A stretch of DNA of 51,013 bases from a virus (taxonomy: Duplodnaviria > Heunggongvirae > Uroviricota > Caudoviricetes): IMG/VR virus record IMGVR_UViG_2548876959_000011. The stretch is one strand, 5' to 3'. The notes below the pieces were generated by a model. It saw only the letters and a program-made list of their open reading frames with translations, ran no database searches and was not told where the DNA came from. The translations under genes were made by a program, and so were the position numbers. Below are positions 24,545 to 27,234 of this stretch, in pieces. The stretch's first letter is position 1, and each line of letters opens with the position of its first letter.

Positions 24545-24630
24545 AACGATCAGGGATCTATATGGATCTAATTGGGATCTGTATGGACCTGATTATTGGA
24601 TCTATCCAGTGGATAATGTGGATAAGTGAA
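24545..24630. promoter_or_regulatory. oriR GATC cluster and DnaA boxes
   Basis: Five GATC sites in 24548-24603; DnaA box tgtggataa (24617-24625) plus agtggataa (24608-24616); a further box tgtggatag at 24367-24375. Confidence 0.7.
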
Positions 24631-24652
24631 AAACCGGCCAACAAAGCCGGTT
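24626..24652 (-). terminator. terminator insulating oriR from the upstream leftward operon
   Basis: Stem aaccggc/gccggtt followed on the minus strand by TTTTTCAC. Confidence 0.55.
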
Positions 24653-24666
24653 AGAAGGAAACCGTA

Positions 24667-25059
24667 TTATTCTACGCTTTCGATAAGAAGACCATGTTCA
24701 TAACATTTAAGCTCATCGCCTTCATACAGGAATTGGTATCCAACACCACCACCTTCCGGAACATTAGGGAATAAATCATCACTTACCGAAGAACAAATCA
24801 CACCAATGCAGCGATCAACGCCTTCTCGTTCTTCAGTGCTGAAAAAATCCTCTTCGGTAAGAACATGAGTACATTGCTCATCAGCATAGGTCGGAAATAC
24901 ATGCTCGATGCAATCCGGGTGTTTTAAACCAAGCTGATCGGCAAGCTCGAAAGCATGACGGTATTGTTCAGATCCTGGCTTGCCAACAGTGATGTGCTCA
25001 ATTTTGTAGATTGAAGTCGCTTTGTTGATAGTTTGCTTTACTGTTACTTTATCAGACAT
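24667..25059 (-). CDS. hypothetical protein (P1 upfA position)
   Basis: 130-aa ORF; no recognisable motif. Confidence 0.5.
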   Translation of the reverse strand: MSDKVTVKQTINKATSIYKIEHITVGKPGSEQYRHAFELADQLGLKHPDCIEHVFPTYADEQCTHVLTEEDFFSTEEREGVDRCIGVICSSVSDDLFPNVPEGGGVGYQFLYEGDELKCYEHGLLIESVE

Positions 25060-25070
25060 AAAAATCCCTT

Positions 25071-25403
25071 TTAGTTACCGCTGATAGCGCGGTTGTAATC
25101 ATTAACGTTGCGATTCTTCCTGTTAATCCCCATCAGCATCGTTTCTGTATCAAGGATATACGCTGGCAGATCATCAAAATATTCACTGCTAAACTCTGGC
25201 ATTCTGCACATAAATGCACTTTTGGGGGCAGGGTGGTTAACCTTTGTCGGCGTCGGCGTTAAATTCGCTGATCGACTCCCGGAGCAACCGCTGAGTGTCA
25301 GCAGGAATGCGCTGGCGAACATTACCCGCCGCAACCAGTTGTTTCTGAACTTCAGCTTTTCGTTCCATTTGCCTGTCAGCATATTTGGCTTGTTCTGATT
25401 CAT
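25071..25403 (-). CDS. lipoprotein (mlp-like); candidate o-spanin
   Basis: Lipobox LTLSGC; probable true start at internal Met (about 25322); overlaps the 3-prime end of the upstream ORF in another frame. Confidence 0.55.
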   Translation of the reverse strand: MNQNKPNMLTGKWNEKLKFRNNWLRRVMFASAFLLTLSGCSGSRSANLTPTPTKVNHPAPKSAFMCRMPEFSSEYFDDLPAYILDTETMLMGINRKNRNVNDYNRAISGN

Positions 25404-25686
25404 TTTTCACTTCCTGGCTGTGAAAATGTTGCTCTGCTTTGTTCATCGTCTCAATGGTCTGGTTAAGATCCATTATTGACTTATCACGTTCCTTAACAGC
25501 CTGATCAAGACTGCCAATTTTCTCGATGGCTTGCTTTAGCTGATGACGTTCCCATGCAAACCCAGCACCAACAAGTGCGCAAATCAGAACAAGAACACCA
25601 GTAGCAGCAAGTTTCTCCTTCAAAGACAAAGCTGTTTTTAACGTAGAAAAGAATGACATGTCTTCCTCCTGAAGAAAAATTATCAA
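25237..25686 (-). CDS. membrane-anchored coiled-coil periplasmic protein (ppfA-like); candidate i-spanin
   Basis: 149-aa ORF; N-terminal TM segment GVLVLICALVGAGFAW then charged coiled-coil region. Confidence 0.55.
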   Translation of the reverse strand: MIIFLQEEDMSFFSTLKTALSLKEKLAATGVLVLICALVGAGFAWERHQLKQAIEKIGSLDQAVKERDKSIMDLNQTIETMNKAEQHFHSQEVKNESEQAKYADRQMERKAEVQKQLVAAGNVRQRIPADTQRLLRESISEFNADADKG

Positions 25687-25698
25687 TGAAGTCCTTTG

Positions 25699-26544
25699 TT
25701 ACTGTGCCGCTTTGTTTAATTCATCAAGAACAGAATCAGGAACCAAAGCAGCAACTGCGCTGGCTGTGCTGGCCTTATTTGCTGATGCTTCCGCAAGCGC
25801 AGTACCGATAGCATGGTTATAAGCAGTTATGGCTACATTGGCGCTTTCATTCGCTCGTTCATACTGCTGTTGTAACGCAGTTGTGGGCGCTGTTGTCTGG
25901 TTGAAAACAACCCCAAACTGTTCAGTTGCTACTTTCAGAGATTCAATTTGCTCTTCTGTTAGTGCTGGTGGGGGAGTGGCAGTGCCGCCGCCTGAACCAG
26001 AGCCTGACGAGCTTCCTGAGCCAGTGTTAAGGGTCTGGTTAATCTCCCCCATAGCAGCGACTAAACTTGATGTATTAAGCGCGTTTACAGCGTCCTCAAG
26101 CGATTTAGTAATAGTCACATCACCAATGGCAATAGAGATCGGCAGTTCTGATACTTCTCGCTCATTAGCACGGCAGTAAACATCCCAACCAATATCGAGT
26201 TGAAGCAGCATTGACAGATCTGCATAACCAGCCAACAGGTCCGCGTGCTTAGTTGCCAGTTCTCCAATGTTCGTTAAGCCGGTTGTGGTTGTTCTGATCG
26301 TTGAAACATAGCTGGTAATAGTGTCGGGATAGACAATTGTATCCAGAATTAATCCGGTCAATTCTTCTGCAAGCAGTTTTGCTGTGTTAGCACTGTTTCG
26401 TGCCGATGTTATGGCACCAGGTGTTTTCATCCCACCGGCGGCGGCCAATTTTTTATATGCGGATAACTGGTAGTCTTTTTCCAGCATGATATCTCCTAAC
26501 TTACCTGAACCAGGCCGTCTCCGGACGCTACGGTAGATCCGCAT
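25699..26544 (-). CDS. hypothetical protein with Gly/Ser-rich linker
   Basis: 281-aa ORF; GSGSSSGSGSGGG linker; likely start at internal Met (MLEKDY...). Confidence 0.45.
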   Translation of the reverse strand: MRIYRSVRRRPGSGKLGDIMLEKDYQLSAYKKLAAAGGMKTPGAITSARNSANTAKLLAEELTGLILDTIVYPDTITSYVSTIRTTTTGLTNIGELATKHADLLAGYADLSMLLQLDIGWDVYCRANEREVSELPISIAIGDVTITKSLEDAVNALNTSSLVAAMGEINQTLNTGSGSSSGSGSGGGTATPPPALTEEQIESLKVATEQFGVVFNQTTAPTTALQQQYERANESANVAITAYNHAIGTALAEASANKASTASAVAALVPDSVLDELNKAAQ

Positions 26545-26780
26545 GAAACAGGGTCACCAACGCATACGATCCCTTTACCATTGACGGTAAACCATGCCCT
26601 GGTTGATATAGCTTGCCCACCGTGCGTACTGTTTCCATCGGTATGCTGTGCATATTGCTTACCATCAACTAACACTTCGACTCCGTTGACTTTAAGTAGT
26701 GGTTCACTCTCTACAGGAGGCCTGGATGGGAATCCTCCGTGCCCCGAACAAATGCTGTCTTTTGTTGCAATACTTGCCAC
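26496..26780 (-). CDS. small beta-rich protein, possibly PAAR-like
   Basis: 94-aa ORF; repeated HGG...VNG...GDPVSCGS pattern. Confidence 0.35.
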   Translation of the reverse strand: MASIATKDSICSGHGGFPSRPPVESEPLLKVNGVEVLVDGKQYAQHTDGNSTHGGQAISTRAWFTVNGKGIVCVGDPVSCGSTVASGDGLVQVS

Positions 26781-26861
26781 GTCATCACCAATTATTTGCT
26801 CTGATTTTCGTTATTTTAACTCAGGTTGTTTGTGGTCTACACGGAGTTCAACTATTGCAAA

Positions 26862-26878
26862 ATTGCTCTAATAAATAT
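26862..26878 (+). promoter_or_regulatory. C1 operator-like site upstream of the hrdC-dmt operon
   Basis: ATTGCTCTAATAAATAT, 16/17 match. Confidence 0.65.
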
Positions 26879-26949
26879 TGTTTTTTATGTCGTATTTTCG
26901 GTACCATTCAGCCATCGCCCTTCAATGGGCATTTGTTTGGAGTCGTCAG

Positions 26950-27234
26950 ATGCAGATGGAGCTAATAAGCCGCAAAGAGTTCGATAGCCGTGTAACCAGC
27001 GGTGAACTCGACAACTTGCAGGCTATCAAGGTGAAAGAAGGCTTTTGCCTCATTGGGAATCAGAGCGGAACAAATCGCGTTTTTATGCTTCGCCGTACGG
27101 ATTTGAAGCCATTTGTCTGGAAGAACGAAATTGGTCCCAGCTCATACGCTCAAACGAGGGGGTGCCACAACCTGGCCTTTTTCTACAAAGACGAGCTTTC
27201 TGTGGTTGATATTCAAGGGTTACAACATGTTTAA
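26950..27234 (+). CDS. hypothetical protein upstream of hrdC
   Basis: ATG at 26950 with GGAG RBS inside ORF 26878..27234; 8-nt overlap with hrdC start. Confidence 0.45.

Follow-up and report, generated by a model that had tools for sequence, protein, structure and literature searches.

Results

Identity of the DNA and of the gene pair

The window, by which we mean the whole 51,013-nucleotide stretch analysed (IMG/VR record IMGVR_UViG_2548876959_000011), carries on its minus strand five tightly packed genes of the same orientation, in the order upfC-upfB-ppfA-mlp-upfA (Table 1). Two of them, ppfA and mlp, overlap in different frames. Judged by its nucleotide identity, the window is a P1-like phage-plasmid: positions 15000-36000 are 98.7% identical to P1 across 99% of those 21 kb, and positions 24600-26000 are 95.7-97.9% identical to P1 records (95.7% to NC_005856 and 97.9% to other P1 isolates). 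The ppfA and mlp genes are the same genes as gp064 and gp063 of P1, with the same overlap, Shine-Dalgarno sequences, orientation and neighbours (upfA, upfB, upfC and repA). PpfA of the window is 100% identical to P1 PpfA, and Mlp is 98.2% identical to P1 Mlp and 100% identical to Mlp of phage RCS47. The two residues in which it differs from the P1 reference, N7 for S7 and A32 for V32, are both inside the signal peptide. In the P1 reference record ppfA is annotated as "possible periplasmic function" and mlp as "membrane lipoprotein precursor", with upfA, oriR and repA on one side of the pair and upfB and upfC on the other.

Table 1. Features of the ppfA/mlp locus, in window coordinates and in the order of transcription
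Feature	Position	Strand	Basis or remark
upfC, PAAR-like spike tip	26496..26780	-	PAAR matches; P1 cryo-EM
upfB, tripod on spike	25699..26544 (as annotated)	-	P1 cryo-EM
ppfA Shine-Dalgarno, AGGAGG	25665..25670	-	sequence; 5 nt upstream of the ATG at 25659
ppfA, putative i-spanin gene, 140 aa	25237..25659	-	ORF; P1 identity; phrog_89; Kongari 2018 gp064
PpfA predicted transmembrane anchor, codons 17-35 (LAATGVLVLICALVGAGFA)	25555..25611	-	Kyte-Doolittle
mlp Shine-Dalgarno, AGGAAG	25410..25415	-	within ppfA codons Q82-E83-V84
mlp, putative o-spanin gene, 110-aa precursor, +1 frame relative to ppfA	25071..25403	-	ORF; P1 identity; PHROGs; hhalign to LysC
Dual-coding overlap, 167 nt	25237..25403	-	last 55 residues of PpfA; signal peptide and first 16 mature residues of Mlp
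Mlp lipobox L-S-G-C, residues 37-40	25284..25295	-	LTLSG/C; Cys40 is the predicted lipidated residue
upfA, last gene of the unit	24667..25059	-	phrog_1453
Terminator-like GC hairpin and T-run, 8-bp stem	24632..24652	-	consensus scan; candidate terminator

Targeting signals of PpfA and Mlp

The ORF listing contains a 149-aa reading frame that starts at a TTG (25237..25686, minus strand), and an earlier note on this sequence had described its product as a 149-aa protein with a transmembrane anchor and a charged periplasmic domain. An ATG lies nine codons into this frame and is preceded, at a spacing of 5 nt, by AGGAGG. Since this Shine-Dalgarno sequence and the ATG are conserved among the relatives examined, and the nine codons upstream are not, we take PpfA to be 140 aa long. 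The ribosome-binding site reads (C)AGGAGG in the window and in five diverged relatives (L003 and L007-L010, described below) and GGGAGG in a sixth, L015. The anchor and the charge described earlier stand, but the length of 149 aa does not. The sole strongly hydrophobic segment of PpfA is LAATGVLVLICALVGAGFA (maximum of 2.35 in a 19-residue Kyte-Doolittle window), and the 17 N-terminal residues ahead of it are net positive, with three K/R against one D/E. The C-terminal 104 residues are 36% charged and include 12 Gln and one Pro. An AlphaFold2 model built with 11 homologues (mean pLDDT 72) shows residues 13-110 and 120-138 as helices, separated by a break at 111-119. PpfA is thus predicted to have a short cytoplasmic N-terminus, one transmembrane helix and a helical periplasmic domain with a linker.

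The lipoprotein gene with the lipobox LTLSGC that had been noticed earlier is present. Mlp has a predicted lipoprotein signal peptide of 39 aa, which leaves a mature lipoprotein of 71 aa; the N-terminus reads MNQNKPNMLTGKWNEKLKFRNNWLRRVMFASAFLLTLSG followed, after the predicted cleavage site, by CSGS. This signal peptide is unusually long, as was also flagged by Kongari 2018 (PMC6139136). The +2 residue, next to Cys40, is Ser, so sorting to the outer membrane is favoured. The mature part is proline-containing as described, with six Pro in its 71 residues, all of them within the first 30, and it has one Cys besides Cys40.

We applied the criteria for two-component spanins of Summer 2007 and Kongari 2018. 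An i-spanin has a single N-terminal transmembrane segment with most of the protein in the periplasm, and this is the predicted topology of PpfA; the periplasmic domain is expected to be alpha-helical or coiled coil and broken by a linker, and the AlphaFold2 model has this form. An o-spanin carries a Cys in a lipobox, is free of a residue at +2 that would retain it in the inner membrane, and is small once processed, as predicted for Mlp. The o-spanin gene is adjacent to, overlaps or is embedded in the i-spanin gene, and here the two overlap by 167 nt in the +1 frame, an arrangement that is conserved in relatives. Spanin genes are expressed late, together with holin and endolysin, and this was found in P1vir RNA-seq data (PMC8201110; see below). 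They usually, though not obligatorily, lie in or next to a lysis cassette; the neighbours here are upfB, upfC, upfA and repA.

Conservation of both reading frames

We compared the window with P1 and six diverged P1-like elements, namely Cronobacter phage JK004 (L003), four assemblies whose PpfA is 59-63% identical (L007-L010) and a 94-kb IMG/VR contig (L015; about 31-40% PpfA identity) that was found by a viral-contig search with P0102. The +1 mlp ORF is open and has an ATG start in P1 and in all six diverged genomes; the ATG is the same codon in P1 and lies one codon further downstream in the six. The Shine-Dalgarno sequence of mlp, AGGAAG in the window, reads AGGAGG in five of them (L003 and L007-L010), and PpfA residues Q82 and E83, whose codons hold it, are invariant. 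The lipobox Cys is invariant and at the same position in eight genomes, in a box of the form LS[GA]C, with Asn in place of Ser (LN[GA]C) in two relatives. In the alignment of the eight Mlp sequences 34 columns are invariant, among them AFMC-x-MP, DDLP-x-Y and INRKN. The gene ends 166 nt past the ppfA stop in the window, 166-169 nt past it in L003 and L007-L010, and 151 nt past it in L015. Among the diverged P1-like genomes conservation reaches down to 48% identity for Mlp and to about 31% for PpfA.

Nei-Gojobori dN/dS values between the window and the five relatives L003 and L007-L010 were 0.15-0.26 for the ppfA frame in the segment that is ppfA only, against 0.8-1.8 for the wrong frames. In the segment downstream of the overlap, which is mlp only, the mlp frame gave about 0.1 and the wrong frames 1.4-2.4. 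Each frame is thus under purifying selection outside the overlap. Within the overlap the ppfA frame gave 0.16-0.28 and the mlp frame about 2. The ppfA frame therefore dominates there, which fits, since most of what the overlap encodes in the mlp frame is the n-region of the signal peptide, which tolerates sequence change and varies freely. The earlier note had named a lack of conservation of the overlap as an outcome that would speak against its reading; both frames are kept across the P1-like genomes.

A scan of the genome collection for the pair returned three near-identical loci only. A profile search with the PpfA alignment against 1.84 billion representatives returned P1-like relatives, two or three distant full-length proteins and coiled-coil noise only, with no homologue in a different genomic context, and a viral-contig search with P0108 gave no match. 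Gene callers often skip mlp: many records are without it or have only a 46-aa C-terminal fragment.

Family relationships

Spanin-specific searches, which had been proposed as a check, placed both proteins in PHROG spanin families as their best matches. PpfA matched phrog_89 best (5e-25, nearly full length), and Mlp matched phrog_30284 (2e-77) and phrog_456 (4e-5); all three families are labelled Rz-like spanin. When prototype spanins were scanned in the same way, P2 LysB fell in phrog_89 (5.8e-61) and P2 LysC in phrog_456 (1.7e-31), the latter also matching the Mlp family reciprocally (5e-4), whereas lambda Rz and Rz1 fell in phrog_13 and phrog_3198. In a direct BLASTP comparison Mlp and P2 LysC were 37% identical over 68 aa (E 5e-8), and hhalign of the Mlp alignment against P2 LysC gave a probability of 90% (E 1.7e-6). 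The match takes in the lipobox and a conserved second Cys in a C-x-M-P motif. Because the PpfA profile gave no significant hhalign match to P2 LysB taken as one sequence, the link between PpfA and LysB rests on the PHROG profile. The top NCBIfam matches of the pair were likewise TIGR03495 (LysB) and NF038368 (P2_Rz1), both below the cut-off for equivalog membership: PpfA scored 18.2 bits against a cut-off of 92.75, and Mlp 14.3 bits against a cut-off of 27.

A Pfam scan of both proteins at E up to 1 gave low-scoring coiled-coil noise only, with no match to Phage_lysis (lambda Rz), and hhalign of the pair against lambda Rz and Rz1 gave probabilities of 1.6% and 8.9%, so that no similarity was detectable. 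Membership in the families of lambda Rz (Phage_lysis, phrog_13) and Rz1 (phrog_3198), for which Pfam, hhalign and PHROG all gave no match, is rejected. By these profile comparisons, ppfA/mlp appears to be a remote relative of P2 LysB/LysC and to stand outside the lambda Rz/Rz1 sequence family. The terms Rz-like and Rz1-like used in the earlier note are therefore apt for the functional design of the two proteins but not for their kinship, which is with P2 LysB/LysC instead.

The P2 pair is the prototype of the overlapped spanin architecture, and its likeness to the P1 pair extends beyond the shared phrog_89 and phrog_456. The sizes are alike (141 and 96 aa for LysB and LysC, 140 and 110 aa for PpfA and Mlp), and P2 lysC, likewise in the +1 frame, shares 146 nt with the 3' end of lysB, compared with 167 nt for mlp and ppfA. 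However, Mlp has a signal peptide that exceeds that of LysC by about 20 residues. The P2 pair belongs to a lysis cassette, in which holin Y, endolysin K and lysA precede it, whereas the P1 pair comes after spike-tip genes and has no linkage to lyz and lydAB. The functional design of the pair is that of lambda Rz/Rz1, the experimentally characterised spanin: Rz is, as predicted for PpfA, a type II protein of the inner membrane whose periplasmic domain is helical, and Rz1 is, as predicted for Mlp, an outer-membrane lipoprotein encoded in the +1 frame. In contrast to mlp, which extends past the end of ppfA, the Rz1 gene is wholly embedded in Rz. Lambda Rz has a periplasmic Cys and PpfA is without one, and the whole Rz1 precursor is 60 aa long, whereas mature Mlp alone has 71 aa.

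Transcription unit and late expression

The genes upstream of ppfA are virion genes, since the P1 cryo-EM structure of 2026 puts UpfC and UpfB on the spike, the former as its PAAR-like tip and the latter as a tripod (PMC12810830). The order upfC-upfB-ppfA-mlp, followed by repA-parA-parB, is kept in every one of the six diverged relatives, and the upfA slot is variable among them. In the window the candidate terminator hairpin lies 15 nt past the upfA stop, ahead of oriR.

Expression was read from the P1vir RNA-seq table of PMC8201110, which gives log fold changes at 10 and 30 min. The five genes from upfC to upfA stood at 4.1-5.6 at 10 min and at 10.5-11.2 at 30 min, a mean rise of 6.2, or about 70-fold. 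Over the same interval the late structural genes rose by a mean of 6.75 and lydA/lydB/lyz/lydD/lydE by a mean of 6.8. Unlike these, repA/parA/parB and uhr-hrdC-dmt were already at 7.4-9.5 at 10 min and rose by only 2.3-2.5 to 30 min. Given the sequence identity, the late profile of the P1 unit can be transferred to the window. The ppfA and mlp genes are the distal part of a late unit that starts at upfC/upfB and is separate from the plasmid-maintenance module, and because they are transcribed late with the tail-tip genes, their place beside the replicon is a physical one only. The odd location that had been remarked on earlier is thus real in that the pair lies outside a lysis cassette, but its assignment to the plasmid-maintenance region does not hold, the pair being part of the late spike-tip unit with the hairpin before oriR.

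On the coordinates of NC_005856, P1 lyz-lydD-lydE and lydAB lie at 20-21 kb and 30-31 kb and ppfA/mlp at 63.4-63.9 kb, a gap of 32-44 kb between the pair and the other lysis genes. That the lysis genes of P1 are spread over several operons is a described feature of this phage (Bednarek 2022).

The Lpa late-promoter motif was taken from the annotated LP23 (AAGTGACTT-N4-TAAAAT; general form AAGTNACTT-N4-TANNNT). No Lpa box with at most one mismatch was found at window positions 25660-27000, upstream of ppfA and upfC. The P1 record places two predicted sigma-70 promoters (P1ppfA and P2ppfA) inside upfB and has no late promoter there. In an alignment of the region upstream of upfC, the C1 operator Op68 and a TAAAAT-like -10 are conserved about 35-40 nt before the start, and a -35 is absent.

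Discussion

The ppfA and mlp genes of this P1-like phage-plasmid very probably encode, together, a two-component spanin. The i-spanin/o-spanin reading that the earlier note had proposed is supported by the transmembrane segment, the lipobox and the overlap, by the PHROG families of both proteins, by the late P1 mRNA and by an existing listing in Kongari 2018. The reading is not new, and the feature is ordinary for P1. In Table S1 of Kongari 2018 (PMC6139136) the two-component spanin of P1 (NC_005856) has the type "ovl" (overlapped). Its i-spanin is gp064, with the identical 140-aa sequence, a 36/104 split that leaves 104 residues in the periplasm and no periplasmic Cys. The o-spanin is gp063, of 110 aa, with a signal of 39 residues that is annotated "too long signal sequence", a LipoP cleavage at 39, the lipobox TLSG, a mature part of 71 residues and one periplasmic Cys. 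Bednarek 2022 also names ppfA/mlp as the P1 spanin pair, attributing the identification to Summer 2007, with the i- and o- labels of the two interchanged. The RefSeq name for mlp is already "Rz-like spanin", several P1-like records label the pair Rz/Rz1, and the P1 record adds to mlp the note "possibly involved in regulation of lysis (by homology)".

The analysis shows the gene structure, the targeting signals, the conservation in two frames, the remote homology to LysB/LysC and, in P1, the late mRNA; by analogy with lambda Rz/Rz1, Mlp would be lipidated, PpfA and Mlp would form a complex, and this complex would fuse the membranes or disrupt the outer one. The two genes are expressed late, in the distal part of upfC-upfB-ppfA-mlp-upfA, a unit that would end at the hairpin before oriR. 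Translation of mlp would use a Shine-Dalgarno sequence and an ATG of its own, which lie within the 3' part of ppfA in the +1 frame. The N-terminal helix would anchor PpfA in the inner membrane in an N-in, C-out orientation, with the long helical domain in the periplasm, while Mlp would be exported, lipidated on Cys40, relieved of its 39-residue signal peptide and delivered to the outer membrane, on its inner leaflet. Joined by their periplasmic ends, the two proteins may bridge the periplasm through the meshes of the murein. After degradation of the murein by Lyz, the SAR-endolysin of P1, the PpfA-Mlp complexes would be free to move and to change conformation, and could then fuse the inner and outer membranes, removing the last barrier to phage release.

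Several observations were counted against the spanin reading. They are the low NCBIfam scores, the lack of similarity to lambda Rz/Rz1 and of a periplasmic Cys in PpfA, the long Mlp signal, the Asn at lipobox position -2 in two relatives, and the absence of a linked holin or endolysin gene and of an upstream Lpa box. In a CRISPRi knock-down study of P1, both genes were non-essential for plaques, with EOP values of 0.24/0.19 for mlp and 1.3/1.2 for ppfA; in the same study lambda Rz was scored as essential, with EOP values of 5e-4 and 0.15 in the two columns. The P1 result does not conflict with a spanin role, since the phenotype of spanin mutants is conditional, and lends that role no positive support.

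The CRISPRi result would also agree with a different kind of function, in which the pair serves the prophage in the envelope, through superinfection exclusion or lysogenic conversion, and is expressed from sigma-70 promoters in the plasmid state as part of the maintenance region. The adjacency to oriR, repA and parAB, the predicted P1ppfA and P2ppfA promoters, with no late promoter in the P1 record, and the missing Lpa box would all agree with this. Yet the mRNA is scarce at 10 min and has risen about 70-fold by 30 min, a course that repA/parAB do not share, the pair is co-oriented and co-regulated with the virion spike genes, a hairpin separates the unit from oriR, and the homology is to the lysis pair of P2, so that we regard an envelope function of the prophage as very improbable. 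The P2 homology itself might be read in another way, as the P2 record describes lysB/lysC with "affects timing of lysis" and "regulation of lysis", the P1 record carries its similar note on mlp, and the holin/antiholin set of P1 is unusually complex (Bednarek 2022); PpfA and Mlp would then modulate the timing of lysis through the holin or the SAR-endolysin rather than disrupt the outer membrane. This seems very improbable to us, since an inner-membrane anchor paired with an outer-membrane lipoprotein is the defining topology of spanins, P2 LysB/LysC are themselves now classed as a paradigm two-component spanin, and a spanin defect under shaking itself gives delayed lysis (lambda Rz/Rz1 literature, as summed up by Bednarek 2022).

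Both of these alternatives take mlp to be a gene. If the +1 lipoprotein ORF had instead arisen by chance and ppfA were the sole real gene, the frequent omission of mlp by gene callers, or its reduction to a 46-aa fragment, would be expected, as would the dN/dS of about 2 for its frame inside the overlap. However, mlp continues for 166 nt beyond ppfA with a dN/dS of about 0.1 in its own frame, its ORF, start, Cys and 34-column invariant core are kept in eight genomes, down to 48% identity, and it has its own PHROG family and homology to P2 LysC. The probability of a chance ORF is practically nil, and the conservation data effectively refute it. There is also a very slim chance that PpfA and Mlp are not, or not only, a lysis spanin and have another or additional role that spans the periplasm, for example in entry or in virion maturation. 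Its basis is the tight and ancient linkage to upfC/upfB, down to about 31% PpfA identity, together with the weak CRISPRi phenotype and a unit that is without a canonical Lpa promoter. If this were true, P1 would breach the outer membrane by a different route.

If ppfA/mlp is a two-component spanin, as we think very probable, the finding has little consequence beyond correct annotation, for the pair is already catalogued as the spanin of P1, and that it lies apart from the holin and endolysin genes has been described as peculiar to this phage. What we consider useful is that both frames are conserved over diverged P1-like phage-plasmids, and that the pair is grouped with P2 LysB/LysC and not with lambda Rz/Rz1. 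It is also useful that the adjacency to repA reflects no functional linkage, the pair lying in the last part of a late unit of spike-tip genes, which a candidate terminator hairpin insulates from oriR.

Gene starts, and annotation of the predicted spanin genes

Mis-annotation of mlp, the predicted o-spanin gene overlapped with ppfA (mlp lies at 25071-25403 in the window), is widespread in database records, many of which either lack the gene or have only its C-terminal 44-52 residues, labelled 'Rz1' or 'hypothetical'. The RefSeq entry for P1 calls mlp an 'Rz-like spanin', whereas ppfA is still 'PpfA', and Bednarek 2022 reversed the labels, with ppfA as o-spanin and mlp as i-spanin. The Shine-Dalgarno sequence of mlp lies within ppfA, in codons for residues that are invariant or nearly so, and reads CAGGAAGTG in the window versus CAGGAGGTG in relatives. 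In the signal peptide of Mlp, the basic n-region (about 26 residues) is conserved in length and varies in sequence.

As annotated in P1, the 281-aa upfB ORF shares 49 nt with upfC. UpfB aligns with its PHROG family only from residue 20 onward, and diverged homologues, at 258-260 aa, start 3' of the upfC stop; the true start is therefore probably Met20 (MLEKDYQ..., about 26487).

Features of the upfC-to-upfA unit and corresponding regions of P1-like elements
Feature	Sequence	Coordinates	Strand	Content
upfC	window	26496-26780	minus	PAAR-motif protein
upfB as annotated	window	25699-26544		281-aa ORF
mlp Shine-Dalgarno	window	25410-25415		formed by PpfA codons Q82-E83-V84
Terminator-like hairpin	window	24632-24652	minus	AACCGGCTTTGTTGGCCGGTT then T-run
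mlp-oriR/repA slot	window, also P1	24667-25059 (window)		upfA (phrog_1453)
Same slot	L007	4601-4966		Gp49/PF13876-family gene
Same slot	L009	4600-4953		Gp49/PF13876-family gene
Same slot	L010	4597-4965		Gp49/PF13876-family gene
Same slot	L008	4424-4977		no called gene
Same slot	L015	7753-9182		157-aa ORF + extra 318-aa ORF
mlp mis-annotation example	MH422554	57202-57342
mlp mis-annotation example	JK004			gene_24

Organization of the late unit

UpfC matches PF05488 (8.5e-6) and phrog_281 (2e-30), and P1 cryo-EM identified it as a T4 gp5.4-like spike tip (PMC12810830). P1-like elements keep spike-tip genes immediately 5' of the spanin genes. On the other side, the slot between mlp and oriR/repA is variable in gene content: the window and P1 both carry upfA there, and other arrangements occur in four assemblies with 59-63% PpfA identity (L007-L010) and a 94-kb contig (L015).

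Late timing of the unit was seen in P1 RNA-seq; the canonical Lpa box, the P1 late-promoter motif (AAGTNACTT), is absent upstream of it (window 26781-26945, minus). When this region was compared with those of Cronobacter phage JK004 (L003) and L007-L010 at about 2731-2897, the sole common elements were Op68, an operator for C1, and a -10 element resembling TAAAAT, which sits about 35-40 nt 5' of upfC in the diverged intergenic regions and has no -35 beside it in the regions compared.

At the distal end in the window, the terminator-like hairpin follows the upfA stop by 15 nt, with oriR just beyond. In this position, the hairpin would shield the plasmid origin from late transcription running from upfC to upfA.
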